From an uncultured Spirochaetota bacterium (GTDB lineage Bacteria > Spirochaetota > Spirochaetia > JAFGXN01), in contig CALXKN010000004.1 of NCBI GenBank assembly GCA_944388995.1, positions 6,394 to 70,393 on the forward strand: a DNA stretch of 64,000 bases. The letters are read 5' to 3'. Shown here in pieces: positions 3,835 to 62,810 of the stretch. The position numbers were made by a program, and so were the translations under genes. Positions within the stretch are counted from its first letter, which is position 1; every line of letters begins with the position of its first letter. Below the pieces are notes generated by a model. It was not told the DNA's origin. It did not search any database and saw nothing but the letters and a program-made list of their open reading frames with translations.

Positions 3835-3888
3835 CCGTCGCGATTCGCTCTAAAACGGTCATTTTCGGTTTTAATGAAAGGAGCGAAT

Positions 3889-8141: not shown

Positions 8142-8833
8142 TCCGTCCGCTCCGTATTCCGCCGTTTTAAAATCGCTTCGGCAATGAAGAGGTCTTCGGG
8201 ACGGGTGATTTTGATGTTTTGCGGATCGCCTTCCGCGACGGCGCAGGAAAATCCGGCGTCAAAAAAGAGGGAAGAGTCGTCGGTGTACGTTTTTCCCGAT
8301 CCTTCGGCCAGCCGGTGCGCTTCCCGCAGTTTTTCCGTCGGAAACTTTTGCGGCAGCTGCACATTGAAAAGCCGGTCGCGGCGCAGAATGCGGCCGATTT
8401 CGTTTGATTCGGTTTTTTCCAAAACCGTAAACGGAATTTCGCAGCCGGGCGTCACCGCTTCCGCCGGGTGACGGAGAACCGCCGCAACCGTTTCCCGGGT
8501 GACCAACGGCCGCGCCGTTTCATGCAGCAGCGTTACGGGGAACGAACAGCGGGTAAGTCCGGCCGCCACCGATTGCCGGCGGGTTTCTCCCCCCGGCTGC
8601 CACAGAAGCGGCGGAAGTTCGATTTTCAGAGCGGCGATGATGTTTTCAATCTCCTTTCGGGTGCCTTCTCTGTAAACAATGACGATCTCTCCGATTTCGG
8701 GAAATCCGGATAACGCTTCCAATGCGTATGCAAAAACCGGTTTTCCGTTTAACTCAAGGAACTGTTTCGGGCAGCTGCCTCCCATGCGGCTGCCGCTGCC
8801 GCCGCTGAGTAAAACCGCACTGACGGATTTCAT
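8138..8833 (-). CDS. ispD: 2-C-methyl-D-erythritol 4-phosphate cytidylyltransferase
   Basis: AVLLSGGSGSRMGGSCPKQFLELNGKPV N-terminal nucleotidyltransferase signature; about 230 aa. Confidence 0.8.
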   Translation of the reverse strand: MKSVSAVLLSGGSGSRMGGSCPKQFLELNGKPVFAYALEALSGFPEIGEIVIVYREGTRKEIENIIAALKIELPPLLWQPGGETRRQSVAAGLTRCSFPVTLLHETARPLVTRETVAAVLRHPAEAVTPGCEIPFTVLEKTESNEIGRILRRDRLFNVQLPQKFPTEKLREAHRLAEGSGKTYTDDSSLFFDAGFSCAVAEGDPQNIKITRPEDLFIAEAILKRRNTERTE

Positions 8834-23143: not shown

Positions 23144-23620
23144 TTGAAACGCGTTCTGTTTGTCTGTCTCGGAAACATTTGCCGTTCGCCTCTGGCACAG
23201 GCGCTTTTCGAAAAGGAAATCGAAGAGCGGGGATTGAGCCCGGCGGTTGTGGCCGACAGTTGCGGTTGTTCCGGCTGGCACAGCGGCGATTTGCCGGATC
23301 CCCGGATGAGGACGGAAGCGGCGCGCCACGGAATCGATTTGACCCACCGTGCGCGGAAAATCACAAACCGCGACGGCAGTGAATTCGATTATATCTTTGC
23401 AATGGATGAAGAGATTTATGACCGCCTTTCCGATGAATTGGGTGAAAAATACTGGAACAAAATCCGACTGTTTCGGGAGTGGGATCAACCCGATGCCGAC
23501 GGCAGCCGGGACGTACCGGATCCGTATTACGGCGGCAGAGAGGGGTTTGCAGCGGTTTATGACATTTGCGAACGAAACTGCCGCCTGATTGCCGACCGGC
23601 TTTTCCCGTGTAACGATTGA
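23144..23620 (+). CDS. low-molecular-weight protein-tyrosine phosphatase
   Basis: VLFVCLGNICRSPLAQA (CX5R P-loop) and DPYY motif; TTG 23144 (RBS AAGGAG) preferred over GTG 23138. Confidence 0.8.
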   Translation: MKRVLFVCLGNICRSPLAQALFEKEIEERGLSPAVVADSCGCSGWHSGDLPDPRMRTEAARHGIDLTHRARKITNRDGSEFDYIFAMDEEIYDRLSDELGEKYWNKIRLFREWDQPDADGSRDVPDPYYGGREGFAAVYDICERNCRLIADRLFPCND

Positions 23621-24639
23621 TCCGGAAAGGTGTTTTAAAAGAAAGAGGAACGGTTGTGTCTGACGAAAAAAAATTCGAAAAAGAGTGTGCGGTTTTAAAC
23701 GAAATCAAATCCGAGACGGCGAAGGTCATTGTCGGACAGGAGACGGTGATCGACCGTCTTCTGACGGCGCTGATTTGCGGCGGTCACGTTTTGCTTGAAG
23801 GCGTTCCCGGATTGGCAAAGACGCTGACGGTTTCCGTTCTGTCGCAGGTCATCGACGCCGACTTCAAACGGATTCAGTTTACGCCGGATTTGCTTCCCTC
23901 CGATTTGTTGGGTACCCTGATATACAATCCTCAGAAGGGGGCGTTTACAACCAAGAAGGGACCGGTTTTTGCCAACATCGTTTTGGCGGATGAAATCAAC
24001 CGCGCTCCGGCGAAGGTCCAGTCGGCTCTGCTGGAGTGTATGCAGGAGCGGCAGGTAACGCTCGGCGACGAAACCTTCCCGCTGCCGAAACCGTTTTTTG
24101 TTCTGGCGACACAGAATCCCATCGATCAGGAGGGAACCTATGCGCTTCCGGAGGCGCAGGTCGACCGTTTTTTCATGAAGCTGAATGTCACTTATCCCCG
24201 GCGGGACGAAGAGCTTCGGATTTTGGAGTCGATGAGTCTCAGCGAAATGCCGGCGGTGCGCCGCGGCGCGGTTTCCTCTCAGACGCTGCTCTCGTTTCAA
24301 ACCCTGCTTGACGAAGTTTATCTTGACGGCAAGCTGAAAGGATACATCGTCGACTTGATCCGGGCGACGCGCGATCCCGCTTCCGTCGGATTGGGAAAAC
24401 TGAAACCGCTGATCGCCTTCGGCGCTTCTCCCCGCGCCGTCATTGCGCTGGCGAAAGCTTCCAAGGCGACTGCCGTCTTAAACGGAAGAAATTGGGTCAA
24501 ACCGGAGGACATCGCCGCCGTCGCGCCGGACATTTTACGGCATCGAGTGATTCTCGGTTACGAAGCAATGGCCGAAGGAAAGACTTCGGATGCCGTCATT
24601 GACGAACTTCAAAAGGCGTGTCCCATTCCCGCATGTTAA
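23617..24639 (+). CDS. MoxR-family AAA+ ATPase
   Basis: Walker A LLEGVPGLAKT, Walker B VLADEINRA, about 330 aa. Confidence 0.85.
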   Translation: MIRKGVLKERGTVVSDEKKFEKECAVLNEIKSETAKVIVGQETVIDRLLTALICGGHVLLEGVPGLAKTLTVSVLSQVIDADFKRIQFTPDLLPSDLLGTLIYNPQKGAFTTKKGPVFANIVLADEINRAPAKVQSALLECMQERQVTLGDETFPLPKPFFVLATQNPIDQEGTYALPEAQVDRFFMKLNVTYPRRDEELRILESMSLSEMPAVRRGAVSSQTLLSFQTLLDEVYLDGKLKGYIVDLIRATRDPASVGLGKLKPLIAFGASPRAVIALAKASKATAVLNGRNWVKPEDIAAVAPDILRHRVILGYEAMAEGKTSDAVIDELQKACPIPAC

Positions 24640-25520
24640 ACGCCGATTTAAGAAAAAAAATTGAATATATTAAAATCATGACTCGCAAAAAGACCTCCGG
24701 CTCTTTTTCCGGAGGTTATTTGAGCGCTTTTCGCGGCCGCGGCATCGAATTCGAAGAGGTGCGCGAATACGCCGCAGGCGACGATTACCGCGCCATCGAT
24801 TGGAACGTGACCGCCAAAACCGGCAGGCCGCACATCAAGCGTTTTGCCGAAGAACGGGAGCTGACGCTTTTTTTTGCGGTCGACGTCTCCGCTTCGGCTG
24901 ATTTCGGCACGGGCGGAAAAACCAAAAAGGAAACAGCCGCCGAAATGGTCTGCGCTCTGGCGTTTGCCGCCGGACTGAACCGCGACCGCACCGGTCTTTT
25001 GCTTTTCAGCGACCGCAGCGAGCTGCGCGTGGCGCCGTCGAAAGGCGAGTGGCACTATTTGCGGCTGACAAGGGATCTGCTGGCGTTTGAGTGCCGGGAG
25101 AAGAAAACCTCGATTTCGGCCGCCTTAACCGATTTGGATGAAATCACCTCCAAACGGGCGGTGGTTTTTCTCTTTTCCGATTTTATTGATTCGGGATGGG
25201 AGAGGGCGCTGAAACAGACTGCAGTCAGACACGATTTGATTCCCGTCGTACTGAGGGATCCGGCGGAGTTGCGGCTGCCTTCCTGCGGACTGATGGAATT
25301 TGCCGACGGTGAGAGCGGCCAGACGGTGTTTGTTGACACGGCCTCGCCTGCCGTGCGCCGCCGCTACGAAGAAACCGCCGCCCGCCGCGACCGGGAACTG
25401 ATGAAGAAACTGAGGAAGTGCGGCGCCGATCCTCTGCTGATTGAGACCGACCGCGACTGGATTGATCCGTTGCGGCGGCTGTTTTTCGGAAGGGAACACC
25501 GCTTTCGGGAGGGTGTATGA
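24618..25520 (+). CDS. DUF58-domain protein (MoxR partner)
   Basis: GGYLSAFRGRGIEFEEVREYAAGDDYRAIDWNVTAK DUF58 signature. Start ambiguous (GTG 24618, ATG 24633 or ATG 24675). Confidence 0.7.
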   Translation: MSHSRMLNADLRKKIEYIKIMTRKKTSGSFSGGYLSAFRGRGIEFEEVREYAAGDDYRAIDWNVTAKTGRPHIKRFAEERELTLFFAVDVSASADFGTGGKTKKETAAEMVCALAFAAGLNRDRTGLLLFSDRSELRVAPSKGEWHYLRLTRDLLAFECREKKTSISAALTDLDEITSKRAVVFLFSDFIDSGWERALKQTAVRHDLIPVVLRDPAELRLPSCGLMEFADGESGQTVFVDTASPAVRRRYEETAARRDRELMKKLRKCGADPLLIETDRDWIDPLRRLFFGREHRFREGV

Positions 25521-26395
25521 AAATCGCAGTACGTTTGACAGCCTTTTTGCTGTTTGGTTTTCTTTCCTGCGCGCGCGGGGAACCGCTGCCGGATCTGCTT
25601 AAAACGTATCAGGTTCCGACGGGAACCTTCAGCGTTTCGGTTGACCGTTCTTCCGTTAATCCGGCGGAACGGCTGACAGTGAGCGCCGAAACGCGCCGCG
25701 AAGACGGAAAGCTTCCCGCTCTGACATGGAGCGGAGATCTGCCGCTGAGGCTTCTTGAGACTTACGAAGCGCCGGCGGAGACCGTCTACCGCTTCGACTC
25801 TGATGTGCCCGGCCGTTATGTTTTGCCGCGGCTGAAAGTGGCGTTTCCGGATGAACGGGAATTTTTCACCGACGAAATTCCGCTTACCGTTTTCAGTGAA
25901 ACGGAAGGCGGCGGGCTTCCCGCGGAAATCCTTCCGATTCAGGATGACGAAACCGATCTGTTTTTGATTCTGCTGAGTGTCTGTGCGGCCGTTTTTATTC
26001 TTCTGTTTGCGGTTTTGATTGCGCTTCTGGTGCGTTACCGGATTCTCAAAAAACGTTTAAAGGAGGCGGTTGACCTTCAGCCGCTGAATATACTGACAGC
26101 CTTAAAAGAGGCGGCCGCCAACCGTTTCGATACGCTGAAAACCGATCAGGCCGCCGTTCTGATCCTGCGGGCGGTGATGCTTTCGGTGAGTGACGGGGAG
26201 AAAATCGACGGGGTGATGGAACAATTCCCCGTCGGAACGCTCCGGAAACTGCGGGAAAAAACGGAGAAGTATCAGAAAATTGCCTTTGCGCAGACTCCCG
26301 TCACCAAAACCGAACTGACGGAGGATCTGAATTTTTTCATCGCATTTCAAAAAGAATGGATCCGGCTGAAAAATGAAGAGGCCGCGAAGAAATGA
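25517..26395 (+). CDS. hypothetical membrane protein of Bat operon
   Basis: Signal peptide plus internal TM (LFLILLSVCAAVFILLFAVLIALLV); conserved position between DUF58 and BatA. Confidence 0.5.
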   Translation: MKIAVRLTAFLLFGFLSCARGEPLPDLLKTYQVPTGTFSVSVDRSSVNPAERLTVSAETRREDGKLPALTWSGDLPLRLLETYEAPAETVYRFDSDVPGRYVLPRLKVAFPDEREFFTDEIPLTVFSETEGGGLPAEILPIQDDETDLFLILLSVCAAVFILLFAVLIALLVRYRILKKRLKEAVDLQPLNILTALKEAAANRFDTLKTDQAAVLILRAVMLSVSDGEKIDGVMEQFPVGTLRKLREKTEKYQKIAFAQTPVTKTELTEDLNFFIAFQKEWIRLKNEEAAKK

Positions 26396-27420
26396 GTTTT
26401 GCGTTTCCGTATGCGTTTCTTCTGCTGATTCCGCTCTGTTGCTACCCTGTTTTTGCTTTTTTTTGCAGAAAGCGGCGTCCTGAAACGGTTTTTTCATCGG
26501 TTTCGTTTTTCGGGGAAAAGCCGCCGGCGACCTTCCGGACGAAAACGGCCTTTATTCCGAAGCTGCTGTTTGCCGCGGCGCTGCTCTCCGGCATTGCCGC
26601 GGCCGCCGGACCTCAGAAAGTCACTGAAGCGGTGGAACGGCCCAAAGAAGGCATTGCCGTCGAGTTGGTATTCGACCGATCTTCGAGCATGGAAACGGTT
26701 TTATTGGAGAGTCTGCCTCCGCAAAAGCGGCTTGCGGCTGCCAAAGACGCGTTAAAGGCCTTTGTTTTCGGCGATGAAAAAGAAGGTCTGCCGGGACGTC
26801 CGAACGACTTGATCGGACTGATAGTCTTTGCCCGCTACGCCGACACCGTTTATCCGCTGTCGGTTTCGCACGAGGCGTTGCGGCCGATTATCGATTCGGT
26901 GGAAACACCGCTCGGCAGTGAGACGGAGGACGGAACCAATATCGGTGATGCGTTGGCGTTGGCGGCGGCGAGACTGAAAGCTTTTGATGAAGATGCGGAT
27001 TTTAAAATCGACAGCCGCGTGGTGGTTCTTCTGACCGACGGCGAAAACAACGTCGGAGAAAAAACGCCGCTTGAGGCAGCCGAATTGGCAAAAGAGTGGG
27101 GAATCCGCGTTTACTGCATCTTTTTCGGCGGACGCGGTTACATCGATTATTACGGACAAAAGTTTCCCGTTTTCAGTCATCCGGCCGGATTTCCCGATTT
27201 GACGGCCATCGCCGAGATGACCGGCGGACAGGCGTTTCGCGCCGACAGTACGGGTGAATTGCTGGAAATTTACAAGGAAATCGACCGGTTGGAAAAGACG
27301 GCTTTTGAAGTTTCTTCCCTGACTCGGACGGAAGAACGGTACCGGCCGTTTTTAACGGCGGCGGTGGCGCTTTTTTTTGTTTCGGCGGTTTCGGCTCTGA
27401 CGGTGTACGGAAGGAATTGA
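26392..27420 (+). CDS. batA: vWA-domain aerotolerance protein BatA
   Basis: N-terminal TMs, vWA MIDAS-like VELVFDRSSSM, C-terminal TM. Confidence 0.7.
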   Translation: MSFAFPYAFLLLIPLCCYPVFAFFCRKRRPETVFSSVSFFGEKPPATFRTKTAFIPKLLFAAALLSGIAAAAGPQKVTEAVERPKEGIAVELVFDRSSSMETVLLESLPPQKRLAAAKDALKAFVFGDEKEGLPGRPNDLIGLIVFARYADTVYPLSVSHEALRPIIDSVETPLGSETEDGTNIGDALALAAARLKAFDEDADFKIDSRVVVLLTDGENNVGEKTPLEAAELAKEWGIRVYCIFFGGRGYIDYYGQKFPVFSHPAGFPDLTAIAEMTGGQAFRADSTGELLEIYKEIDRLEKTAFEVSSLTRTEERYRPFLTAAVALFFVSAVSALTVYGRN

Positions 27421-28427
27421 TGCAGGAGTTGGTTTTTCTTTATCCCGAAGCGTTTTTTCTTTTATGGTTTCTGCCGTTTTTGATTGCGGCGGCGGCCGTT
27501 TCAGTTAAAAAACGGCGCCGTATCGAAAAAATTTACACCCGCCGCCGTCCCCGTTCCCGAAGAGCCCGCTTTTTTTCCCGGGCGGCTGCGTTCTGCGCGG
27601 CGGCGGCTTTGCCGCTTTGTGTGACGGCGGCAGCCGGTCCGGCCTGGGGAAAAGAGCTTCAGGCGGTGCAGACGGAGGGACGGGATGTGGTTTTTCTTGT
27701 CGACGTCTCTCAAAGTATGCTGGCGCGGGATTTGAATCCCAACCGGTTGGTTCAGGCTCAGACGGCCATTAAAGATACGATCGATCTGCTTGAAGGCGAC
27801 AGGGCGGCTTTGGTTGCGTTTGCCGGCAGTACCGTCGTTATGGCTCCTCTGACGACCGATTATGCGTTTCTGCGGCGGGCGGCGGACGAACTTTCGGTCA
27901 GTACGGTTGATCGCGGCGGAACGATGACAGGCGATGCGCTTCGCAAAACCATGCAGTTCATCTTTCCCGATTCGGAAGCCTCTGATGGTTACCGAGACAT
28001 CATTTTGATTACCGACGGCGAAGATCAGGGCAGTTTTCCGGTTCAGGCGGCCGAAGCGGCCGGAAAAAAAGGCATTCGGTTGATTTGCATCGGACTGGGA
28101 GACGAGGCGACCGGCACCCGTATTCCGGTTACCGATCCTTCGGGAACGGAGCGCTTTCTGATGTATAAAGGAAAGGAAGTTTGGAGCCGTCTCGATTCGA
28201 CAACTTTGAGAAAAATGGCGGCGGCAACTCCCGGCGGAAAATATTTGAATATCTCACGAGGCAGTTTTGATCTGGCATCGATTTATACCGAATTGGTGAA
28301 AGGCGCCGATCAACGTCGTTATGATTCGGGAGATTTTGAAGATTACAAAAACGAATATCGAATTTTTCTATTGCCGGCTTTGATTTTAATGACAGCAGCG
28401 CTTTTTTTACGGAGGGCGGCGGCATGA
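27417..28427 (+). CDS. batB: vWA-domain aerotolerance protein BatB
   Basis: VVFLVDVSQSM MIDAS motif, flanking TMs. Confidence 0.7.
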   Translation: MMQELVFLYPEAFFLLWFLPFLIAAAAVSVKKRRRIEKIYTRRRPRSRRARFFSRAAAFCAAAALPLCVTAAAGPAWGKELQAVQTEGRDVVFLVDVSQSMLARDLNPNRLVQAQTAIKDTIDLLEGDRAALVAFAGSTVVMAPLTTDYAFLRRAADELSVSTVDRGGTMTGDALRKTMQFIFPDSEASDGYRDIILITDGEDQGSFPVQAAEAAGKKGIRLICIGLGDEATGTRIPVTDPSGTERFLMYKGKEVWSRLDSTTLRKMAAATPGGKYLNISRGSFDLASIYTELVKGADQRRYDSGDFEDYKNEYRIFLLPALILMTAALFLRRAAA

Positions 28428-29227
28428 AGCGGATTTTGTTTGCGGCAGTGTTTCCGATATTTTTTTCCGCCTGTACGTTTCGTTCGGCGGCGTCGCTGTA
28501 CAATGAGGGGAATGAGTTGTATCGGGAAGGTCGTTTTACGGAAGCCGCTGACCGTTACAAAGAAGCGATTGAAAAAGATCCATCGCCCGGGCTGGCAGCA
28601 CGAATTTATTTTAATGCGGGCAATGCGTCGGTAAAGGAAGCGCTCGCTTCTTCCGGTGAATCGGCAGATCTTTCCTCTGCTGACAGCGAAAATCGCCTTC
28701 GTCAAGCTCTGGAACTTTATTGTCTGGCGCAGGCGTGTTGCAGCGAATCGTTTGCAGCAGCGGCTGTCAATGCGGAGTGGGTCAGAGTTCGTTTGTCCGG
28801 CAGCGAACAAAACTCCGAAGAACAAAACTCCGATAAAAATGAAGGAAGTTCATCCGATGAATCGGATTCTGCTGAAAACAAAGAAAACTCCTCCGGAGAA
28901 TCGGAAGAAGAAAGCAGCGAAGATTCATCTGAAAAACAGGATCCGCAAGAGAACAAAAGTGAAAATTCCGACCGGACGAATTCCGGAAAAGAAGAGGACA
29001 GCATTTCCGAAGAAGAAAATCCCGGCGAAGGTCAAGGCGCTGCTTCCGAAGAAGGAGAAAAAGACGCTTTCGGGCAGCCGAAATCCGAAGAAGACGCCCT
29101 TTCTCAGGAAGAGGCGGCACGGATGCGGGAAGCGGCAGAGTTGTTGGAACGGGAAGCGGCTATGCGCCGGCAACGCCCGCTATTTAATCGGGTGCCTTCC
29201 TATGATGATACGGAGAGGAATTGGTGA
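28424..29227 (+). CDS. batC: TPR/acidic low-complexity aerotolerance protein BatC
   Basis: Lipoprotein signal, TPR-like N-terminus, long Ser/Glu/Asp-rich tract. Confidence 0.6.
   Translation: MKRILFAAVFPIFFSACTFRSAASLYNEGNELYREGRFTEAADRYKEAIEKDPSPGLAARIYFNAGNASVKEALASSGESADLSSADSENRLRQALELYCLAQACCSESFAAAAVNAEWVRVRLSGSEQNSEEQNSDKNEGSSSDESDSAENKENSSGESEEESSEDSSEKQDPQENKSENSDRTNSGKEEDSISEEENPGEGQGAASEEGEKDAFGQPKSEEDALSQEEAARMREAAELLEREAAMRRQRPLFNRVPSYDDTERNW
28800..29110 (+). repeat. acidic low-complexity (GAA/GAT-rich) coding tract within batC
   Basis: Runs of gaagaa/gatgaa encoding SEEQNSD..ESEEESSEDSSE. Generates the spurious K-rich ORF 28656..29423 in another frame. Confidence 0.6.
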
Positions 29228-30918
29228 TGAAAAAAAGATTTCTGTTTTTATTGCTGTTGCCGTCGTTTTTAACCGCTCAAGCCGCATTTCCGCAGAACGT
29301 TTCGACTTCTCTCAGCCGTTCGGAGTCATATGTCGGCGAAACAGTCTATCTCTCGTTTTCTTTGCAAACGGAAGAAAAACCGGTTTTAAAGCCGCTGCGC
29401 GCGGTTTTGGGCTTGAAAATTGAGTATCAAGGGGAGAATGTTTCGACTCAGGTGACGACAACAATCGTCAACGGCCGCCGTCAAACGCGGACAGTGTACC
29501 AATACCGCTTTACTTACGCCGTAACGGGGGAGAAACCGGGCGTTTATATCATTCCGCAAACGACGGTTTCCGTCGGCGATCGGGAAATGAGTACATCTCC
29601 GGCTAAGCTGACAGTAAAGGAGATTGAGCGCAATGAAAAGTATCGGTTGATATTGAGAGTCGAAAACGGAGAGCGCGTTTATGTCGGCGAATCGGTTGAT
29701 TTGACTGTCGAATTGGAAATTTCCTCCGAAATCGGGACTCCGGAAATTGAAATTCCGTTTCTAAACGGAACTGAGCTTTCACCTGTCAAAAATTACACGG
29801 AGACGGATGCCGGAAATATCAAAATTAACGACGGCTATTTTCCCGTTAAAAGGGAAGAGGCGGTCCGTTCAAGAGCGGTTTTTTCTGCCCGTCTGCGTTT
29901 TGCAGCGCAAACACCGGGAGTTTATTCGTTCGATGAGGCAAGAGCTTCGTTTCGAGCGGTGACATCCGTCCGCGAATCGGTCGATATTTTCGGCCGTACG
30001 GTTGCTGACAAACAGTACGAGTCGGTTGTCATTCCGGCGGAGAGCGGTCAGTTGGAAATTCTTGCGCTGCCGCAGCCTCAACCGGCGAATTTTTCCGGTA
30101 TTGTCGGCGTTCCGCGTTTGAGTGCCGAAGCCGATTTGACTGAAGCGTTTGTCGGTGATCCGATTACTTATCGGCTGACGGTCGAAGGTGTAGAAAACGT
30201 TCCTTCGGATTTACCGCCGTTGAATCGGATCGATTCGTTTGAGTCGCACTTTCGGATTCCCGAACACCATTCGCCGGCAATGAATGAGAACGGTAAAACG
30301 GTCTTTGTCTACACCATCCGTCCGCTTTCGGCTGATGTCGATGAAATTCCCGCTTATCCGTGCGTTGTTTTTAATCCCGAATCGGAGAGTTACGAAACCG
30401 TAACGGCGTCAGCGCTGCCGTTAAAGGTGAATCCGTCGCCGGCTTTAGTCGAAGAACAAATTGAAGAGTTTTCGTTTGATTCCGCCGAACGGGAAAAAGT
30501 ATCGATGGAAAAAATCGAAAACTTGCTGCCAGCCAATCCTTCTGCTTCGGCGTTATTAAAAAAGGAGAGTCGGTTTCCGTATCGTCCGTTGTTTTGGATT
30601 GTTTACGCGGTTTCGTTTGTTATTGCATTGATACCGATTGCGGCAGCTGTTATTTTGTGTCTTCGTAAACGCCGTTCGCCGACTCTTGCTTCCCGTAAGA
30701 GAGAGCTGCTGCAGCGGTTTGAATCTCTTCTTCGACGAAACGATGGAAAGAAGCTTGAATCGTTCCTCAATCTTTTGAATGAGTACGATGATGTTAAAGC
30801 GGTCTGTCCGGTGTGTTCGATCATCGAAGATGAGGTTGAACGGGCGCTTTTTTCCGGAAGCGCCGGTGAATTCGACGCCGGAGTGGCGTTTGCGAGGTTG
30901 AAGGAGGGACTGCGATGA
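29221..30918 (+). CDS. batD: BatD-like oxygen-tolerance protein
   Basis: Signal peptide, about 565 aa, C-terminal TM (LFWIVYAVSFVIALIPIAAAVILCL); canonical position. Confidence 0.65.
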   Translation: MVMKKRFLFLLLLPSFLTAQAAFPQNVSTSLSRSESYVGETVYLSFSLQTEEKPVLKPLRAVLGLKIEYQGENVSTQVTTTIVNGRRQTRTVYQYRFTYAVTGEKPGVYIIPQTTVSVGDREMSTSPAKLTVKEIERNEKYRLILRVENGERVYVGESVDLTVELEISSEIGTPEIEIPFLNGTELSPVKNYTETDAGNIKINDGYFPVKREEAVRSRAVFSARLRFAAQTPGVYSFDEARASFRAVTSVRESVDIFGRTVADKQYESVVIPAESGQLEILALPQPQPANFSGIVGVPRLSAEADLTEAFVGDPITYRLTVEGVENVPSDLPPLNRIDSFESHFRIPEHHSPAMNENGKTVFVYTIRPLSADVDEIPAYPCVVFNPESESYETVTASALPLKVNPSPALVEEQIEEFSFDSAEREKVSMEKIENLLPANPSASALLKKESRFPYRPLFWIVYAVSFVIALIPIAAAVILCLRKRRSPTLASRKRELLQRFESLLRRNDGKKLESFLNLLNEYDDVKAVCPVCSIIEDEVERALFSGSAGEFDAGVAFARLKEGLR

Positions 30919-31709
30919 AACGAGTTTTGATTCTTTTAATGGCAGCGCTCGCCGTTTCCGGATTCGCTTCGAACGCCGAAGAACGCATTGCCGAAGCTGA
31001 AAAATTTTTTCGGGAAGGTTTGGATTTAATGAAAACCGACGCTTCCGCGTCGGCTGCCGCGTTTGAAAAGAGCGAAGCGCTCTACCGCGCTTCTGCAGCC
31101 GAATTTCCCAATGCGGCGGTTTACCTCTGTCTCGGAAACGCGGCGTTTTTACGCCGGGATTTTCCGAAAGCCGTTTATTATTACCGCCAGTCGCAGTCGT
31201 TCAGCGACAACGCTTCCGTCCGCGCCGCTTTAAACGCAGCCCGCCTGCGTTTAAACGAAGAGATTGAAATTCCGATTCAGGTAAAAATTTTTGAAACCGT
31301 CTTCTTTCCTCACTACAGGATTCCGTTTTCCGTGCGTGCGGCTGCCTTTCCCGTACTGCTTTTCGCCCTGTCGCTTCTTGCCTCATCGGCGCTGCTTCGC
31401 GGCGGTTGGAAGCGGAAAAAGGCGGTCGCCGCCGTTTTGGCTTTTCTTTTGGCCGCGGACTTCCTTTCCGTGACTGTGACCGTTGCTGAAAAAACCTTCC
31501 GCAGGGAAGGGGTCATTTTGAGTGAAACCGAAGGCCGCTCCGGCAACCACCTTGCTTACGACCCCGCTTACCTGCGCCCGGTTCCGGCAGGAAGCGAAGT
31601 GACGGTGACTGACGAACGGTTCGGCTGGATGCGGATTGTTTTGCGGGACCGCTCGCGTTGCTGGGTTCCGAAAGAGGCCGTCTCACTGATCGGCGATCCG
31701 CTTCAGTAA
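30915..31709 (+). CDS. batE: BatE-like TPR/SH3-type protein
   Basis: Signal peptide, TPR-like helices, internal TMs and C-terminal SH3-like GWMRIVLRDRSRCWVPKEAV. Confidence 0.55.
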   Translation: MKRVLILLMAALAVSGFASNAEERIAEAEKFFREGLDLMKTDASASAAAFEKSEALYRASAAEFPNAAVYLCLGNAAFLRRDFPKAVYYYRQSQSFSDNASVRAALNAARLRLNEEIEIPIQVKIFETVFFPHYRIPFSVRAAAFPVLLFALSLLASSALLRGGWKRKKAVAAVLAFLLAADFLSVTVTVAEKTFRREGVILSETEGRSGNHLAYDPAYLRPVPAGSEVTVTDERFGWMRIVLRDRSRCWVPKEAVSLIGDPLQ

Positions 31710-56005: not shown

Positions 56006-56413
56006 GCTTTTTCTCTTTGGGAGCCGTTTTCTCTTCAATCCGGCTGAGCATTTGTGTTGAAAGAATTTGCGGCCATTCGGGAAGCACTTCGCTGCTTTCG
56101 GTCTCATAAGTGCGCAGAATCCCGAAAAAGGCGTCTTCGGCCTCCCGGTACTTTTCCTGTCTGTAAAGCAGGTACGCGATTTCGTAACGGCATTCGATTC
56201 CGATGGCTTTGTATTCGGGAAAACGCGCAATCACCTCTTCAAAAAGAGCGATCACGGCTTCGTAATCTTTTTTGGTTTTGATTTGCCCCTGCTGGACCTG
56301 GGCGTGAAAAAAAAGCTCTTCCGCCGAAAGATTCCCGTTCGTTTCCGTATCAACCGTTACGCAGGAAAAGAGAAAAAGCAAAACGGCGAAAACCGGCGCA
56401 AATGTTTTCACAC
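55971..56413 (-). CDS. small TPR-like lipoprotein
   Basis: GTG start 56413 gives MKTFAPVFAVLLFLFSC lipobox; TPR-like helices (YREAEDAFFGILRTY). ORF-track extension to 56501 unlikely. Confidence 0.45.
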
Positions 56414-56713
56414 CCGGAAGACCTCGTCGTTGACCGGCAGTTTTTTCTTTAAATCTTTCAGATATTCTTCCTCGTCGCCCATCGATTCGTAAGCGTCGCA
56501 TTGATCCAGTTTCCGGCGGATGACGGTGAAGTACTTGTAGTATTTTTCGTCACCCATTTTCTTTTTCCACATACCGGCGTCGCAGCGGACGCGGAGCTGA
56601 TATTCGCCTTCGTTCTGTGTTTGTGTTTTGATGACTTTGCAGTGAATGCAGTTGGCGCAGTATATTTTCGAATCGTCAAAATCTTTTCCGGAAGCGGAAT
56701 CACTGTCTTTCAT
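56408..56713 (-). CDS. small Cys-containing (zinc-ribbon-like) hypothetical protein
   Basis: 101 aa, CANCIHC...C pattern; overlaps downstream lipoprotein gene start (gtgtga coupling). Confidence 0.35.
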   Translation of the reverse strand: MKDSDSASGKDFDDSKIYCANCIHCKVIKTQTQNEGEYQLRVRCDAGMWKKKMGDEKYYKYFTVIRRKLDQCDAYESMGDEEEYLKDLKKKLPVNDEVFRV

Positions 56714-56895
56714 TTTTTAAAACCTCGCATTAATGCAACATTTCGCTCATTGTATTCCGTAAAAATAAAAAAGTCAATAAGAACGGGCAGAATCCGGCGG
56801 AAAACTCGTTATTTCTTGCAAAATACTCAAAAAAGTTCTTTCCATATCTGCAATTATGTTTTATAATAAAACGGCTTTTTGCAGGGAGGGAAAAA

Positions 56896-59800
56896 GTGAG
56901 TATGGTCGGTCTGCTTTTAAACGCCGTGACTTTGGCAGTTTCCGTTGCAATCGTCATTGTTTTCCGCATTATGGATCGGGATAACCGCTCTTTGGACAAA
57001 TTGAAACGATATGCGGCGTCTCTTCAGGAAGAAATCGACGGAATTGTTGAGAAATCCGTGCAGGAGCTGAAAAATACCGCTTTGGATCTGGAGGTCAATA
57101 CGAGGGCCGGGCGGGAGCTGTTAAGCGATGTCAATCGGGAAGATTCCCGTCTGACGGAAATTCAGGAGCGCATCGGCGGTCTGGAAAACAGTGTCAGAAA
57201 TTCCGAAACGGCGATGGATCAGCTTGCGGGATTGACGCAGAGTGTTGAAGAGAATATGCGCAATCTCCGCCGCGAATCGGATTTTGTTACGGCCGTTGCC
57301 AAAAAAGTGAAGGAGATCGACGAACGGACGCAGGCTATCCGCAGTGAGATGGATGAGGTTCTGAACGAATTCGAAGCAAAAGCTTCCGATTCTTTGGAAC
57401 GGATTTCACGCGAGGTTCGGGATGATTTCGAAGAGGAGAAAAAGGAATGCCTGCGTTCCATCGAGGATACAAAAGAGTCGGCCGAACGTGATTGGGCGGC
57501 TTATGTTTCGGGAGAGAAGGAAAGTTTCGATCGGGCTGCGGATGAAATCAGGGAATTTGTCCGGACCATTTCCGAAGAAGGAACCCGAATTTCCGATGAG
57601 GCCGTTTCCCGCATGAACGAAGGTGCGGCGGCAGCGGCCGATGCCTTCCGGAGCGTCTGCGGGGAGAGTCTTCAAAGTCAGCAGGACAAGATTCAGTCCG
57701 TTCGGGAATCGCTTGCCCGGGCGCTGGAAGAGCTGACGGATCAGGTTGAAAATGTCAAGTTTGCTCACCGCGAGTCAATGACGCAAATTCAATCCGAAAA
57801 AGAGCAGATGGAAGAACTTTTTCTTCAGCTGCGGCAAAAAAGCGCCGAACTGACGGATCAGACTGCCGCTCAGATGAAGGAAGATTCCAGGAAGGCGACT
57901 GCGGCCTTTAAAGCAGACTGCGAATCCTTGCAAAGGGAAAACCGGGAGCATGCGGACGGACTGAAAAATTCATTTCAGGAGGTACTTTCTTCCGTGTCGG
58001 CGCAGCTGGAGTCCGTCAAAGGAACTCACGAAGCGGCTTTAAACCGTCTGAATACCGAAAAAATGCAAATGCTGGCGCTGGTTGCCGGACAGCGGGAAAA
58101 ACTGGAAGAGCAGATCAAAAAGGAAATCGCCTCCGTTCTTTCCGGAGTCAAAGAGAAAACCGATACATATACGGCCATTTTTGATGCCAAAGTTGCCGAC
58201 GCCAAAAGCCGCGTCGAAAAAGATCTTTCCGTTCTTCAGGAAAAACAAAACAGAAACCGTTCGGTTTATGTCCGTCAGATGGAAACGCTTGAATCCGATA
58301 TCGAAAAACTTCTGGGAAAATTCAAGACACAGGCCGAAGAGGTCGAAACCCGCTATCAGCGCAACATTCAGAGCGCCATGGACCGCTCCCTTCGGCTTGA
58401 GGACGATATTTTCGAAAATCTCCGCCACAACATTGAAGAGAGGGCTGCAAAATCGGAAAAGCAGCTGGAATCCCATTTAGCTTCCCTGTTTGCTAATATA
58501 GAAACAACAAATGAAGAAATTCTGCACCATTTCGGAGAGATGCGCAGCGAAGTCGAAATGAAAAAAGAAGAGTCGAAAAAAGACTTGGAACAGTTAAAAA
58601 CATCGATTTCAGCCGCTTTGCATGAAGCCGATGCGTTTAACCGTTCGAATTTAACCCGGATTTTGGAAGAGGCTGAAACTTCCCGTAAACGTCTGCGGGA
58701 AGATTTGGACAGTTTCATAGAACGAATGAATTCGGAAATGGATTCCTTTAGGGGAAAAATTACTGACGAACTGAACCTTTCCGAAATGCGCTTGGACGAA
58801 AATACGCGCAAATTGGATCATATTTCGTCGGAAATTGACACTTCAGGCACTCAAATGATTGAATCGGCTTCAGCGCGGTTCAATCAGTCGTTGAATCTCG
58901 TTACGGCGGAAATTGAACGGAAAATAACGGAATTGAACCGTCTGTTTGAGGACCACAAAACGCATTTGGAGTACAAAGTCTCTCAAATCGATGAGGTCGA
59001 ATCGAGCATCGGACGTTATATGGAGGAGGTTTCGGTTTCTCTGGAAAAAGCCGGGAAGCGGAACGAAGAGCTTCTGGAATCATTTGCGGCGGAAGCGCAG
59101 GAGCGGCGGGAGAGCGAGCGGGCGAAAACGGAAGAAGGGTACCGCGAGATTCATCAGACCATCGAGAATATTGGAAAAGAAATCGAATCGATTAAAGCGG
59201 CGGCGTACGAAAGTACCGATAAGCAGATGTCGATTTACGAAGACCAATTTTTTGCCGATTTACGCGAACGGACCGACGCTTTGAATTTAAAAGTTTTGGA
59301 GTGGCAGCAGCAGACCGAAAAGGACATGGAAAAAATTTTGCTTGAATCCCGTGCTCATCAGGCAGAAGCGGAAGAGCAGCGGCGGGCGGCAATCGCGGAA
59401 GGGTTAAAGAAAATCGAAGAGCAGACCGACCGCGAACTGCTCCATTTAAACAGCCGCATTCAGTCGCTTCAGGATAAGATTGCTTCGGATTCCCTGCGCA
59501 ACGAACAGGAAGTAGAAGAGTTTAAAATTCAGATTAATAAAAATATCGAAGGCATCCGCAACGAGGCGCAAAACGCATTCGAAGTGGAATTTTCGAAATA
59601 CGATATGAGTATTGCGGCGAGGCTGGGTGAGTATCAAAAAAATCTGGACGGAGAGATTGAGTCGGTAAAAGGAAAGTTGGAAGAAAATATTTCCGATATA
59701 TTGAAAAGGAACGAAACCGCTTACTCCGATTTAAAGGTTATGCATTCGAACGTCATTCAGCAGATGAAAAATACGGAAGCTGATTTAAAGGCTAAATACG

Positions 59801-61086
59801 CCGATTTGAAAACTTCCGTTTCCGAGAACGTCAATATCATCAAAGATTCCTTTGCGACGCAAAAAGACGGTGTGCTTGAAAAAGCAAAACGGGATACGGA
59901 GGAGTTGGCAAAAGCGGTTCTGATAGTCAGTCAGGATGTCGAAAAAATGGGGATCGATTTACGGCAAAAGTCTGACGATGCTCTTATCGAACTGAATAAA
60001 AAGTATGATGAATTTTATGCGGAATTCAACTATAAGACCGATACGTTACTGAATGAGTTGGATTACAAAATCCGCGATTTCCGTCAGTCCAGCGCCGATA
60101 CCCGCGAAAAAATCGAAGCTGTACAGCAGAAACTTCATAACGATGTCGAAGAAGGGCGGAAAAATCTCTCTTTTCGTCTGGATGAAATTACGAAACGGAT
60201 CCGCGATTTTGAATCGCAGACAAAACTTTTTGAGCGCGCCGACAGTATGAAGAAGAAGCTGACCGATGATATCGCCTCTCTTCGTAATGAAATTGATCAG
60301 TTGGTAATTAAAAAGAAAGAATTCAAAGATATTGATGTCACCTTAGCCAAAGTGAAGGCGATAGAGGCCGATGTGACGGGGAAATTGGGGCAGCTGCAGG
60401 CCAATAAGCGGATTGTCGATGATTTGGAGAAGGACTTTAAACGGTTGCGCGATACTTCTGCCGAAATTAACTCCCGTATCGATAAAGTGACGGCTTCCAA
60501 CGACGCCGTTATGGAAATGCAGGCGCGGCTGCGGCAGTTGGATGAGCTGGAAAGAACCGTCGAGGATCAATATACCCGTTTGGAGAAAAAGGAGCACGTT
60601 CTCAATCACACCACAATGGGAATTGATAAGAATTTTGAGGAGATGCAGGAGCTGGAAACCAGGCTGAAAAATTTCGAAATATCGTTCAATGATTTTCTCG
60701 GAAAATTGGCCGGAGCATCCAAACGGATCGAATCTCTCAGTAATAATAAGGAGCGGGCCGACTTTGCTGTTGAAAAACTGATGGATCTGGACTCCATGCT
60801 TGCTGATATCGACGCGAAGATTGAGTCTGTTACAAAAGCCCGCAAATGGTTGGCCGATACCGAGTCCCGGCTGGTTCAACTCAACGACTCTGCCGTTAAA
60901 AATCTGACAACTTTAAAGGAGGTCACGGAGCTTTCCAACTTTTCAGGCGGAAAAGGAAAGGTTGATCGGAATGCTTTGATTTTACGTTTGGCTCAGCAGG
61001 GTTGGAGCGCTGCCGATATTGCGAAAAAGCTGAATATCGGACTCGGCGAAGTACAGTTGATTATAGAGACGAATCTGAATAAATAG
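56896..61086 (+). CDS. giant membrane-anchored coiled-coil protein with C-terminal helix-turn-helix (1396 aa)
   Basis: N-terminal TM (LLLNAVTLAVSVAIVIVF), about 1300 aa of E/K/Q/L-rich heptad sequence, C-terminal ILRLAQQGWSAADIAKKLNIGLGEVQLII (HTH-like). AGGGAGGG RBS before GTG 56896 / ATG 56902. Confidence 0.6.
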   Translation: MSMVGLLLNAVTLAVSVAIVIVFRIMDRDNRSLDKLKRYAASLQEEIDGIVEKSVQELKNTALDLEVNTRAGRELLSDVNREDSRLTEIQERIGGLENSVRNSETAMDQLAGLTQSVEENMRNLRRESDFVTAVAKKVKEIDERTQAIRSEMDEVLNEFEAKASDSLERISREVRDDFEEEKKECLRSIEDTKESAERDWAAYVSGEKESFDRAADEIREFVRTISEEGTRISDEAVSRMNEGAAAAADAFRSVCGESLQSQQDKIQSVRESLARALEELTDQVENVKFAHRESMTQIQSEKEQMEELFLQLRQKSAELTDQTAAQMKEDSRKATAAFKADCESLQRENREHADGLKNSFQEVLSSVSAQLESVKGTHEAALNRLNTEKMQMLALVAGQREKLEEQIKKEIASVLSGVKEKTDTYTAIFDAKVADAKSRVEKDLSVLQEKQNRNRSVYVRQMETLESDIEKLLGKFKTQAEEVETRYQRNIQSAMDRSLRLEDDIFENLRHNIEERAAKSEKQLESHLASLFANIETTNEEILHHFGEMRSEVEMKKEESKKDLEQLKTSISAALHEADAFNRSNLTRILEEAETSRKRLREDLDSFIERMNSEMDSFRGKITDELNLSEMRLDENTRKLDHISSEIDTSGTQMIESASARFNQSLNLVTAEIERKITELNRLFEDHKTHLEYKVSQIDEVESSIGRYMEEVSVSLEKAGKRNEELLESFAAEAQERRESERAKTEEGYREIHQTIENIGKEIESIKAAAYESTDKQMSIYEDQFFADLRERTDALNLKVLEWQQQTEKDMEKILLESRAHQAEAEEQRRAAIAEGLKKIEEQTDRELLHLNSRIQSLQDKIASDSLRNEQEVEEFKIQINKNIEGIRNEAQNAFEVEFSKYDMSIAARLGEYQKNLDGEIESVKGKLEENISDILKRNETAYSDLKVMHSNVIQQMKNTEADLKAKYADLKTSVSENVNIIKDSFATQKDGVLEKAKRDTEELAKAVLIVSQDVEKMGIDLRQKSDDALIELNKKYDEFYAEFNYKTDTLLNELDYKIRDFRQSSADTREKIEAVQQKLHNDVEEGRKNLSFRLDEITKRIRDFESQTKLFERADSMKKKLTDDIASLRNEIDQLVIKKKEFKDIDVTLAKVKAIEADVTGKLGQLQANKRIVDDLEKDFKRLRDTSAEINSRIDKVTASNDAVMEMQARLRQLDELERTVEDQYTRLEKKEHVLNHTTMGIDKNFEEMQELETRLKNFEISFNDFLGKLAGASKRIESLSNNKERADFAVEKLMDLDSMLADIDAKIESVTKARKWLADTESRLVQLNDSAVKNLTTLKEVTELSNFSGGKGKVDRNALILRLAQQGWSAADIAKKLNIGLGEVQLIIETNLNK

Positions 61087-61096
61087 AGGAGCGGAT

Positions 61097-61447
61097 ATGG
61101 AGCCGTGTTTATTTTGCAGGATTGCCGGCGGAGAAATTCCGTCGGAAAAAGTTTATGAGGATGAATTTGTTTACGCGTTTGAAGATATCAATCCGCAGGC
61201 GCCGGTTCACGTTTTGATCGTTCCCAAGCGTCACATTGCGCGCGTTGAAGATCTTTGCCACTCAGACGCCGAGACAGCCGGCCGTTTACTGACGGCGGCG
61301 GCGGTCATCGCGAAGCAAAGAGGGCTGACAAACGGATTCCGCGCCGTATTCAATAACGGCGCGGACGGCGGACAGGAGGTTGAACACATTCATCTGCATT
61401 TGATCGGCGGGGTCAAAATGGGCTGGCCGCCGTTTCCGTCGGTTTAA
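61097..61447 (+). CDS. HIT-family (histidine triad) protein
   Basis: HIHLHLIGG histidine-triad motif, 116 aa, AGGAG RBS. Confidence 0.8.
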   Translation: MEPCLFCRIAGGEIPSEKVYEDEFVYAFEDINPQAPVHVLIVPKRHIARVEDLCHSDAETAGRLLTAAAVIAKQRGLTNGFRAVFNNGADGGQEVEHIHLHLIGGVKMGWPPFPSV

Positions 61448-62208
61448 TCGGCAACTTCCAGCATTATCGGGCAGTGATCAGAGCCGGTGATGTCGGAAAG
61501 AATTTCGCAGGATTTTAATTTTTCTTTTAAAACCGGATTGACGCAGAAAAAGTCAATTCTCCAGCCGATGTTTTTGCTGCGCGCCTGAAAACGGTAGCTC
61601 CACCATGTATAGGCGTCGGTTTTTTCGGGGTAGAAAAAACGGAAGCAGTCGGTGTAGCCCGCGTCAAGAAACCGTTTCATCCACGCCCGTTCTTCCGGAA
61701 GATACCCGGGATTGCCTTCGTTCGCTTTCGGATTTTTTAAATCGATCGGAAACGGCGCAATGTTGTAATCGCCGCAGAGAATCACCTCCAATCCGGCCGC
61801 GGTCAGTTCATTCAGCTTCTGTTCCATCGCTTCGCAGAAGCGCAGCTTATAACCGAGACGTTTTCCGCCTTCCTGACTGTTGGGAAAGTAAGCGGAGATC
61901 AGAACCCGTTTTCCGAATGTCAGAAACAGCGCGCGGCCTTCGTCGTCGAATTCTTCTATATTCATTTTTTCGATTTTATCCGGTTCCCGTTTTGTATAAA
62001 CCGCGACGCCGCTGTAACCTTTCCGCTTGGCGTCGGCAAAACAGACCCGGTAGGGAGAAAACTCCTTGAAGTGCCGCTTTAAAACAGTCTCCTGGGCTTT
62101 GGTTTCCTGCAGGCACCAGCAGTCCGCGTCGGAACCTTTCATGATATCGAAAAGACCTTTTTCTTCCGCCGAACGGATTCCGTTGACATTCCATGAGATG
62201 ATTTTCAT
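61444..62208 (-). CDS. xth: exodeoxyribonuclease III
   Basis: MKIISWNVNGIRS N-terminus and EEP-fold motifs. Start at 62208 (ATG overlapping upstream stop as ATGA) preferred over ORF-track 62310. Confidence 0.8.
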   Translation of the reverse strand: MKIISWNVNGIRSAEEKGLFDIMKGSDADCWCLQETKAQETVLKRHFKEFSPYRVCFADAKRKGYSGVAVYTKREPDKIEKMNIEEFDDEGRALFLTFGKRVLISAYFPNSQEGGKRLGYKLRFCEAMEQKLNELTAAGLEVILCGDYNIAPFPIDLKNPKANEGNPGYLPEERAWMKRFLDAGYTDCFRFFYPEKTDAYTWWSYRFQARSKNIGWRIDFFCVNPVLKEKLKSCEILSDITGSDHCPIMLEVAD

Positions 62209-62810
62209 GTTTTGTTGCACTCCCCACCCGGCGACAGCGCCGTTTGTTTTTGTTTCAGCGCCTGAAAGAGTTCCCGCGGAATGCGCAGTTCCCTTTGCCT
62301 GGCGCTCCAATAAGTTTCTCCGTAGTCGGTAAAAATTTCTTCCCCCCGTTCGACGGTACGGGCGGCGTAAAAGAAGACAATCCAGTGCCCGTCAATGAAA
62401 AGATGATCGGCGGCTGCGTTCGGGGTAAACGAGTGGTTGGCAAACCGAAGCGCATTGCCTTTTTTCAGAGCGTTGATTTCCAGCCGCGGAAAAGTCGGCG
62501 CCGGTACAAGCCAGGCATAGTCGGTTCTTCTTGAGAACGGCAGCGCCCAGCGCTGTTCGCCGGTGTACTGACCGATCCAGTCGCCCTCAGCCAGCGTTTT
62601 GCGGGCAAAAAGACCGCAGCCGTGAACCGAAGAAGGGCGCACTTCGACGTCGGCGATCTCCCCGCGGCGGATTGATTTTCCGTATTTCTTTAAGAGCCGT
62701 TCGAATTCGTTCCGGTTGCGTTCGTAGTAACCGCGCGCGCTGAACAGAGGCCGCTGCTGAATCCGGTTTTGTGTCAAAAATTCAAAATCATCGGGATAAA
62801 ACGGCTCCAT
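62205..62810 (-). CDS. bacterial SET-domain protein (putative lysine methyltransferase)
   Basis: FANHSFTPNA (NHSCxPN-like SET motif), GCGLFA, and C-terminal EEIFTDYG; 201 aa; translationally coupled to xth. Confidence 0.6.
   Translation of the reverse strand: MEPFYPDDFEFLTQNRIQQRPLFSARGYYERNRNEFERLLKKYGKSIRRGEIADVEVRPSSVHGCGLFARKTLAEGDWIGQYTGEQRWALPFSRRTDYAWLVPAPTFPRLEINALKKGNALRFANHSFTPNAAADHLFIDGHWIVFFYAARTVERGEEIFTDYGETYWSARQRELRIPRELFQALKQKQTALSPGGECNKT

Follow-up and report, generated by a model that had tools for sequence, protein, structure and literature searches.

Results

The locus and its product

A stretch of 64,000 nucleotides (nt) of DNA from an uncultured Spirochaetota bacterium (GenBank assembly GCA_944388995.1, contig CALXKN010000004.1, positions 6,394 to 70,393; below, the window) carries a gene for a giant coiled-coil protein, whose open reading frame (ORF) of 1396 residues, with a GTG start, exists as an earlier reading of the bare sequence (the sequence-only reading) had given it (Table 1). 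That reading took the product to belong to no standard annotated family. The family turned out to be named already: SpiroCoCo_N and SpiroCoCo_C (NF047515; 251 bits against a cut-off of 125, residues 1085–1390) of NCBIfam and DUF6115 (PF19610) of Pfam all match above their cut-offs, the last with 39.8 bits for the full protein, 46.5 for a C-terminal fragment and 41.6 for the last 42 residues, against a cut-off of 27. By these profile matches, the protein is a member of the SpiroCoCo family and of DUF6115. Of the novel scaffold that had been proposed, the following stands: a coiled coil of great length, anchored in the membrane and lying in the cytoplasm, that ends in a tip of helix-turn-helix (HTH) fold. 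The family name was known; a rod periodicity of 3.64 residues, a conserved motif in the middle of the rod and a link of the tip to the domain DUF2802 are new with respect to the family models.

Homologues were collected by an exhaustive search of representative sequences with the last 157 residues as the query, which gave 385 representative clusters at E ≤ 1e-3; it was used in place of a word-indexed search with the C-terminal 312 residues, which gave two fragments only. A metagenome scan gave 506 relatives. Nearly all named relatives are spirochetes (Treponema, Alkalispirochaeta, Rectinema, Spirochaetaceae, Spirochaetales), one family fragment was binned as Delongbacteria, and the closest genomic loci lie in metagenome-assembled genomes of Spirochaetales or Spirochaetia, with conserved local synteny. 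The shortest intact member seen has 773 residues (L045). Short "mini" forms of the protein were considered and rejected, because such hits, where they fell on long contigs, came from giant genes that were broken by frameshifts or assembled into chimeric contigs. The literature searched contained no mention of SpiroCoCo, LA_3659 (NCBIfam NF047516, which belongs to the same set of family models) or DUF6115, and no described function of the family. Automated annotation has systematically mislabelled SpiroCoCo proteins or their fragments as "chromosome segregation ATPase", "SbcCD ATPase subunit", "NarL/FixJ response regulator", "sigma24" or "phage shock protein A", because the coiled coil and the HTH-like tip drive such matches.

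Membrane anchor

The protein contains one hydrophobic segment only. Kyte–Doolittle averages over 19-residue windows exceed 1.6 solely at residues 1–28, and AlphaFold2 models a helix at residues 5–25, which agrees with the single N-terminal transmembrane helix of the sequence-only reading. Positively charged residues flank this helix (R24, R28, R31, K35, K37 and R38); since the charged flank follows the helix, an N-out/C-in orientation is predicted, with all downstream residues in the cytoplasm. A transmembrane helix is located at residues 1–26 in nearly all of about 110 full-length representatives, and about 10 representatives lack it, possibly as a result of truncated gene calls. The juxtamembrane motif of SpiroCoCo_N has two invariant residues, R24 and D27, and three, N30, R31 and L33, that are conserved in at least 90% of sequences.

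Periodicity of the rod

The region between the membrane helix and the tip had been described as about 1300 residues of uninterrupted heptad-like sequence. A long coiled coil, predicted to be helical and rich in E and K, was supported, but heptads are confined to residues ~40–165 and ~1077–1340, and the middle follows a period of 3.64. The protein as a whole is rich in E, L, K, A, S, R and D, and has no proline among its 1396 residues. The heptad phase is constant across residues 41–166, with which a family-wide periodicity map concurs. The stretch of period 3.64 comprises about 975 central residues in almost constant phase. Its spectral power at the peak was 15.4, compared with at most 2.2 among 300 shuffles that preserved composition, and at most 7.1 in controls in which local amphipathicity was kept and the phase was randomised between 33-residue blocks. 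The rod period was 3.63–3.66 in every full-length representative examined (about 110). Averaged over 100 representatives, heptads occupied residues ~45–155 from the N-terminus and the last ~50–305 residues, with an abrupt switch to 3.64. By these positions, the two NCBIfam domains correspond to the heptad segments, and the variable rod to the 3.64 part. Self-BLAST detected no recent internal repeats, indicating that the periodicity is statistical and does not result from tandem duplication.

The period of an undistorted alpha-helix is 3.63 (PMC9858780). The rod period is close to this value, and almost no supercoiling is therefore implied; read in this way, the sequence implies that the central rod is a nearly unsupercoiled coiled coil. 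The hydrophobic seam takes up about 3 of 11 angular positions (52–56% LIVMF), a narrow strip that is flanked on both sides by mixed K/R and D/E, which argues for a coiled-coil seam and against a lipid-binding face. In the AlphaFold2 model of residues 1–1200 nearly everything is helix, with one helix spanning residues 422–1106; as the confidence of this model is low (mean predicted local distance difference test score, pLDDT, 54.6), its secondary structure alone was used and its three-dimensional arrangement disregarded. With 0.15 nm per residue, about 1325 helical residues would make a rod about 200 nm long.

A conserved motif within the rod

Neither NCBIfam domain model covers the mid-rod motif, at which the amplitude of the periodicity dips. 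It reads YEDQFFADLRERTD in the window sequence and VFEDEFFADL..R......L..W in the family consensus; E782, F785, D788 and R792 are invariant in an alignment that includes distant homologues (A5). Of 112 representatives, 97 contain the motif. In these it lies at a median distance of 618 residues from the C-terminus (608–626 in 58 of the 97; standard deviation 70), in contrast to its distance to the N-terminus, which ranges from 284 to 1682 residues (standard deviation 268). Thus, length variation is confined between the N-terminal domain and the mid-rod motif. The motif itself may be a second binding site or a hinge.

Length also differs between the window and a near-identical strain (L002). The DNA of the two is 95.2% identical up to nt 57599 and 81.9% identical from nt 57993 on, and the 393 nt between (57600–57992) are replaced in L002 by 1752 nt (8705–10456), which adds 453 residues near residue 235. 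As judged from this alignment, the replacement is the mark of a recombination or indel breakpoint within the gene. That a length difference of 453 residues in a single block is tolerated is easier to reconcile with a rod of chains running parallel and in register than with a specific antiparallel hairpin.

The C-terminal tip

AlphaFold2 modelled the C-terminus (122-sequence alignment, mean pLDDT 91) as a long helix reaching residue 1351, a flexible linker and three short helices (residues 1358–1367, 1372–1379 and 1383–1394, pLDDT 88–92). In Foldseek searches, this tip superposed on the HTH domains of resolvase, NarL/RcsB/LiaR and sigma region 4 with a probability >0.9 and a root-mean-square deviation of 1.7–2.3 Å over 36–42 residues. 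The last ~40 residues, which the sequence-only reading had called HTH-like, are accordingly predicted to have this fold by both methods. The tip carries G1369, W1370, I1375, G1384, E1385, V1386, L1388, I1389 and E1391, and it stands at the very C-terminal end in nearly all of about 110 full-length representatives. In the stalk motif W1318, E1323 and R1325 are invariant and R1316 is nearly invariant among 114 sequences, and a conserved QTKLFERAD motif stands at a predicted helix break within SpiroCoCo_C (residues 1107–1114). The tip and the N-terminal domain are conserved far more strongly than the rod.

The third helix, which would be the recognition helix (consensus SRGEVELILEL), has a net charge of -1 to -4 in 109 of 109 members, and the mean net charge of the whole tip domain is -0.25. 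As this helix is acidic in all members tested, DNA binding by the tip is unlikely, and with it the tethering of DNA through the HTH that had been envisaged. Among HTH families, HTH_23 scored 19 bits on the full protein and 24.9 bits on the 42-residue tip (cut-off 24.6), and GerE, Sigma70_r4 and HTH_7 all stayed under their cut-offs. An anti-sigma-like role, also suggested before, has no specific support; the specific relatives of the tip are DUF6115 and DUF2802, and the function of the latter as a protein-binding domain points to the recruitment of a protein and away from DNA or a sigma factor.

Relation of the tip to DUF2802 and FipA

DUF6115 matched 121 of 122 family C-termini, and DUF2802 (PF10975) matched 119 of the 122 at E ≤ 0.01, with a best E of 5.8e-8. 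The individual DUF2802 scores of family members other than the window protein were 27–32.9 bits (E 1e-7 to 5e-6), and a 39-residue family consensus had DUF2802 as its top Pfam family (32.9 bits, cut-off 33.5). Five canonical DNA-binding HTH domains served as controls (GerE, NarL-C, gamma-delta resolvase, Hin and sigma-70 region 4); all of them hit their own families strongly, and none matched DUF2802 at E ≤ 1. DUF6115, the closest Pfam relative of tip and stalk together, is a 134-position model, of which positions 34–132 match the last ~100 residues; upstream of this match the SpiroCoCo protein continues for about 1260 residues more.

DUF2802 is the FlhF-binding domain of FipA, a polar determinant of Vibrio, Pseudomonas and Shewanella (PMC11620751; eLife 2024;13:RP93004); FlhF, which FipA binds through this domain, is a flagellum-placing GTPase of the signal recognition particle type. 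The topology of FipA has been mapped experimentally: residues 1–5 are periplasmic and are followed by a transmembrane helix (6–28), a cytoplasmic coiled region and DUF2802 (68–135) (PMC11620751). G110, E126 and L129, in the numbering of VpFipA, are the three residues that are 100% conserved in FipA, and the substitutions G110A and L129A abolish the binding of FlhF (PMC11620751). These residues correspond to positions 43, 59 and 62 of the DUF2802 profile, provided that VpFipA matches the 68-position profile over its full length and without gaps. In the window protein the same positions are G1369, E1385 and L1388, which are conserved in 110–112 of 114 sequences, and six other members aligned to the profile have the same G, E and L.

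The SpiroCoCo protein is, by prediction, built like FipA, with a very short periplasmic N-terminus, one transmembrane helix, a cytoplasmic coiled region and a C-terminal domain. Moreover, its tip matches the 30 most conserved positions of the DUF2802 profile, including the G/E/L triad, and both proteins could plausibly self-associate by way of a part outside the tip. The two differ greatly in size, as FipA has about 160 residues with a coil of about 30, whereas the SpiroCoCo protein has 1396 with a rod of about 1300. Unlike fipA, the SpiroCoCo gene does not lie beside flhF/flhG; in addition, its DUF2802 score is under the cut-off, and FlhF is a candidate partner only.

A search for FipA with the family consensus (tblastn against plasmids) returned chance hits in TraH only. 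SwrB of B. subtilis was considered as a DUF6115 member, with the idea of a position at the end of the fla/che operon like that of fipA, and was dropped as unsupported: its N-terminal 107 residues, of which positions H13, L48, F51 and L53 agree with bioRxiv 10.1101/2021.04.30.442225, gave no DUF6115 hit.

Gene features and neighbourhood

The features of the gene are collected in Table 1. An alternative ATG at 56902, two codons inside the GTG start, agrees with a 1394-residue homologue (P0001) that is 99% identical. Promoter-like matches in the region are not more numerous than expected from shuffled sequence. The GC content of the gene is lower than that of the window (0.469 and 0.511, respectively), in line with the earlier remark that it is lower than in neighbouring genes. 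The deficit is located at codon position 2 (0.319), showing that the low GC content mirrors the amino-acid composition and not a foreign origin; horizontal transfer was rejected as its source.

Table 1. Positions of the SpiroCoCo gene, its parts and adjoining features in the window.
Feature	Position	Strand	Basis and details
Divergent promoter-like site	56777-56749	-	Consensus match only
Promoter-like site TTTCCA-17-TATAAT	56839..56867	+	~29 nt before start codon; consensus match only
Ribosome-binding site GGGAGGG	56884..56890	+	5 nt ahead of GTG start; read off sequence
SpiroCoCo family coiled-coil protein, coding sequence	56896..61086	+	1396 residues
Single N-terminal transmembrane helix, residues ~4-25	56905..56970	+	Sole hydrophobic segment; helix 5-25 in AlphaFold2 model; predicted N-out/C-in
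SpiroCoCo_N domain, residues 11-219	56926..57552	+	NF047514, 154.7 bits, cut-off 75; holds juxtamembrane motif RIMDRDNRSLDKLKRY and heptad coiled coil at residues ~40-165
Central rod, residues ~125-1100	57268..60195	+	Hydrophobic period 3.64, single coherent phase; N-proximal part is the length-variable region of the family
Conserved mid-rod motif, residues ~765-805, AAYESTDKQMSIYEDQFFADLRERTDALNLKVLEW	59188..59310	+	Invariant residues in alignment A5 with distant homologues
SpiroCoCo_C domain, residues 1085-1390	60148..61065	+	NF047515; heptad coiled coil and tip domain
Stalk motif KARKWLADTESRL, family consensus AREWLARTETRL	60835..60873	+	Conserved among 114 sequences
Flexible linker GGKGKVD, family consensus G-A-P	60946..60966	+	pLDDT <50 at residues 1351-1354
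C-terminal three-helix HTH-fold domain, DUF6115/DUF2802 (FipA-like) type	60967..61077	+	AlphaFold2, Foldseek, Pfam DUF6115
HIT-family (HinT-like) gene	61097..61447	+	Starts 10 nt past stop codon

The HIT gene follows as the sequence-only reading had it, but the SpiroCoCo gene is unlikely to be monocistronic, as was claimed there. Since the HIT start lies so close to the stop codon, with no terminator-like site between them, the two genes are probably co-transcribed, in the lineage of the window only: the adjacency is retained solely in three close relatives (L001–L003). The neighbours in the window are of the housekeeping kind and encode an M16 peptidase, a 101-residue CxxC protein, a BamD-like TPR protein, HIT, Xth and a SET-domain protein. 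As they are linked to the gene in its closest relatives only, no functional inference was drawn from them. The window contains no flagellar genes.

Several observations concern these neighbours and the rest of the window. The 101-residue protein with CxxC...C motifs (56408-56713, - strand, divergently transcribed) has no match in Pfam or NCBIfam; it is 90–95% identical in L001–L003, compared with 63–75% for the neighbouring genes, and thus appears unusually constrained. The HIT gene shares its last 4 nt (61444-61447) with the exonuclease III (Xth) ORF, which is convergent to it. The Xth ORF, when called from the first TTG, overlaps the SET-domain gene by about 100 nt (62205-62310), which suggests that its true start is probably further downstream. 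Positions 3874-5178 (+ strand) encode a second coiled-coil-rich protein, of 434 residues, with an N-terminal zinc-ribbon-like CxxC motif. Genes at 23617-31709 (+ strand) look by eye like those for a MoxR-type AAA ATPase, a DUF58-like protein and several von Willebrand-type and TPR membrane proteins, a run whose translations presumably resemble, also by eye, the Bat (aerotolerance) operon of Bacteroides, Leptospira and Borrelia.

Neighbours of the family were surveyed in 75 non-redundant metagenomic loci, which provided one set of 68 first-downstream genes and another of 42 upstream and 54 second-downstream genes. Where an upstream gene was present (42 loci), it was in 22 cases a HAD-IA hydrolase of about 220 residues, immediately before the SpiroCoCo gene and on its strand, with a gap of -28 to +62 nt; judged by this arrangement, the pair looks like an operon, but the hydrolase is absent in the lineage of the window. 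The gene grpE is first or second downstream in 15 of 68 loci, HSP70 appears in 7, and the order HAD – SpiroCoCo – grpE – dnaK – dnaJ was seen in four separately retrieved homologues.

Discussion

We consider it an even call that the protein serves as a spacer that is anchored in the membrane and carries a protein-binding tip. The transmembrane helix would anchor it in the inner membrane of the spirochete, with the remainder in the cytoplasm; the chains would pair in parallel and in register through the continuous hydrophobic seam, forming the long rod; and the tip would act as an adaptor that binds protein and does not read DNA. If the tip is homologous to DUF2802 of FipA, it could recruit or position a cytoplasmic partner at a defined distance from the anchor. 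FlhF is the leading candidate for this partner, since the triad is conserved, the topology is shared with FipA and the DUF2802 signal is specific, although the assignment is tentative and less likely than not. With FlhF as the partner, the protein would have a role in the placement or number of subpolar periplasmic flagella. The fullest form of the proposal, in which SpiroCoCo is the spirochete counterpart of FipA, i.e., a membrane landmark whose tip captures FlhF and whose rigid rod is a ruler that sites periplasmic flagellar motors relative to the pole or to each other, is doubtful. As a ruler, the protein would combine a rod part that varies with the lineage and a constant distal module of about 618 residues bounded by the second conserved site.

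Several points weigh against this proposal. Every DUF2802 score is under the Pfam gathering cut-off of 33.5 bits, the tip of the window protein scores only 11.6–19.8 bits, and the signal rests on about 30 residues. The comparison with FipA was made through the Pfam profile and published residue positions, not through the FipA sequence itself. The authors of the FipA study found no FipA homologue in spirochetes, and fipA adjoins the flhF/flhG operon (flhA-flhF-flhG-fliA) (PMC11620751), whereas the 25 families seen most often in each of the two sets of SpiroCoCo neighbours include none of flagella or chemotaxis. The domain of FipA is near the membrane, but the SpiroCoCo tip would be up to about 200 nm away from it, unless the rod lies along the membrane. 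Additionally, the core of the seam is rich in large hydrophobic residues and not in alanine, and in hendecad-type rods such a core may mean an oligomer higher than a dimer (PMC9858780). The literature searched contains no experiment on any family member.

The rod could instead serve an element of the cytoskeleton or of cell polarity in the manner of the intermediate-filament-like Scy, FilP and crescentin: filaments or a lattice, attached to the membrane and built by self-assembly of the rods, would give the spirochete cell its shape or organisation without FlhF, and the tip would be a generic module for assembly or for partners. The arrangement of about 975 non-heptad residues of period 3.64 between heptad segments is what makes this explanation attractive, since in Scy and FilP, too, heptads at the N-terminus give way to long hendecad rods, of >1000 residues in Scy (PMC9858780). 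Both Streptomyces proteins likewise have a very long rod of low supercoil near the 3.63 period. The conservation of the family across the phylum would also fit, and the three conserved "stations" at fixed spacing could be lattice contacts. However, Scy and FilP belong to another phylum, show no sequence homology to SpiroCoCo and are soluble, with a DivIVA-like N-terminal domain where SpiroCoCo has a transmembrane anchor; SpiroCoCo differs from them also in a seam core that is not alanine-rich, a second heptad segment and the HTH-fold tip. Moreover, the full protein gave no DivIVA or filament Pfam hit at E ≤ 1, and the ends are more conserved than the rod, which suggests a function at the ends. 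We therefore regard filament formation as rather unlikely. A more drastic departure would be a protein that coats membranes with an amphipathic helix, like apolipoproteins, PspA or LEA proteins, its 11-mer-type periodicity lying on a lipid surface. The rod period is indeed near 11/3, and Pfam Apolipoprotein A1/A4/E matched five stretches with E 5e-19, although with 69 bits it remained under its cut-off of 90. The hydrophobic face, by contrast, covers an arc of only about 100 degrees, its mixed flanks do not follow the class-A charge pattern, prolines do not punctuate the sequence, and phase coherence over the central rod points to a continuous helix–helix seam, all of which makes a lipid-coating function highly improbable.

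Long coiled coils are common to SMC, Rad50, EzrA and the ZorA tail, and the sequence-only reading had likened the protein to SMC and EzrA and had considered a chemoreceptor as well. None of these comparisons was upheld: no SMC/Rad50 ATPase head was found (the best score, 39.6 bits against a cut-off of 729, came from coiled-coil stretches only; the cut-offs of these models are 570–1090), the full protein did not hit the EzrA or MCP-signalling Pfam models at E ≤ 1, and it lacks the MotA/ExbB membrane domain. A role in a defence system was also rejected, as the PADLOC hits (tail regions of ZorA, and LmuB) reflect the coiled coil only and are far under the family cut-offs; for Zorya ZorA in particular, the hits lie at tail positions only and the single transmembrane helix is not a multi-pass domain of the MotA/ExbB type. 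As for the proposal of the sequence-only reading that the C-terminal HTH ties the membrane to DNA or makes the protein a membrane-bound transcription regulator, the Foldseek matches and the HTH_23 score of the isolated tip speak for it, as do PDB profile hits to Pax5 and Tn3 resolvase (E 0.02–0.03). The three-helix fold is that of LuxR/NarL, sigma-70 region 4 and serine-recombinase HTH domains, and resolvase likewise has a long helix, a linker and an HTH. In those proteins, however, the third helix is basic and polar, whereas in SpiroCoCo it is acidic and hydrophobic; the best-matching families, DUF6115 and DUF2802, are not DNA-binding, and DUF2802 is documented as protein-binding (PMC11620751). 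The rod that separates the tip from the membrane would have a length similar to the width of a thin spirochete, also an odd geometry for a regulator, and a DNA-binding function is improbable. The gene order suggests another role, that of a stress- or chaperone-linked factor coupled to the downstream grpE-dnaK-dnaJ genes, e.g., a membrane sensor or a platform for DnaK clients, and the recurrence of grpE, of HSP70 and of the five-gene order in the survey would be in line with it. Yet the linkage is absent in the lineage of the window and in most loci, the gaps ahead of grpE amount to 100–340 nt, and the order among relatives may be inherited synteny alone. In T. denticola, TDE0626, which lies upstream of grpE and is assumed from synteny to be a SpiroCoCo protein, is not co-transcribed with grpE-dnaK-dnaJ (PMC2965109). 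A coupling to chaperones is thus decidedly improbable.

Should the link to FlhF fail, the protein would be an ordinary member of a named family. According to a 2025 review, landmarking beyond monotrichous patterns "remains unclear" (PMC12826062). If the link is true, a phylum-wide spirochete protein with the topology of FipA and its conserved binding residues would bear on how FlhF finds its site, and SpiroCoCo would be among the rare candidates for a protein ruler of about 200 nm. Whatever its function, SpiroCoCo is a striking natural case of a coiled-coil seam of about 1000 residues that keeps a period of 3.64 without register breaks.

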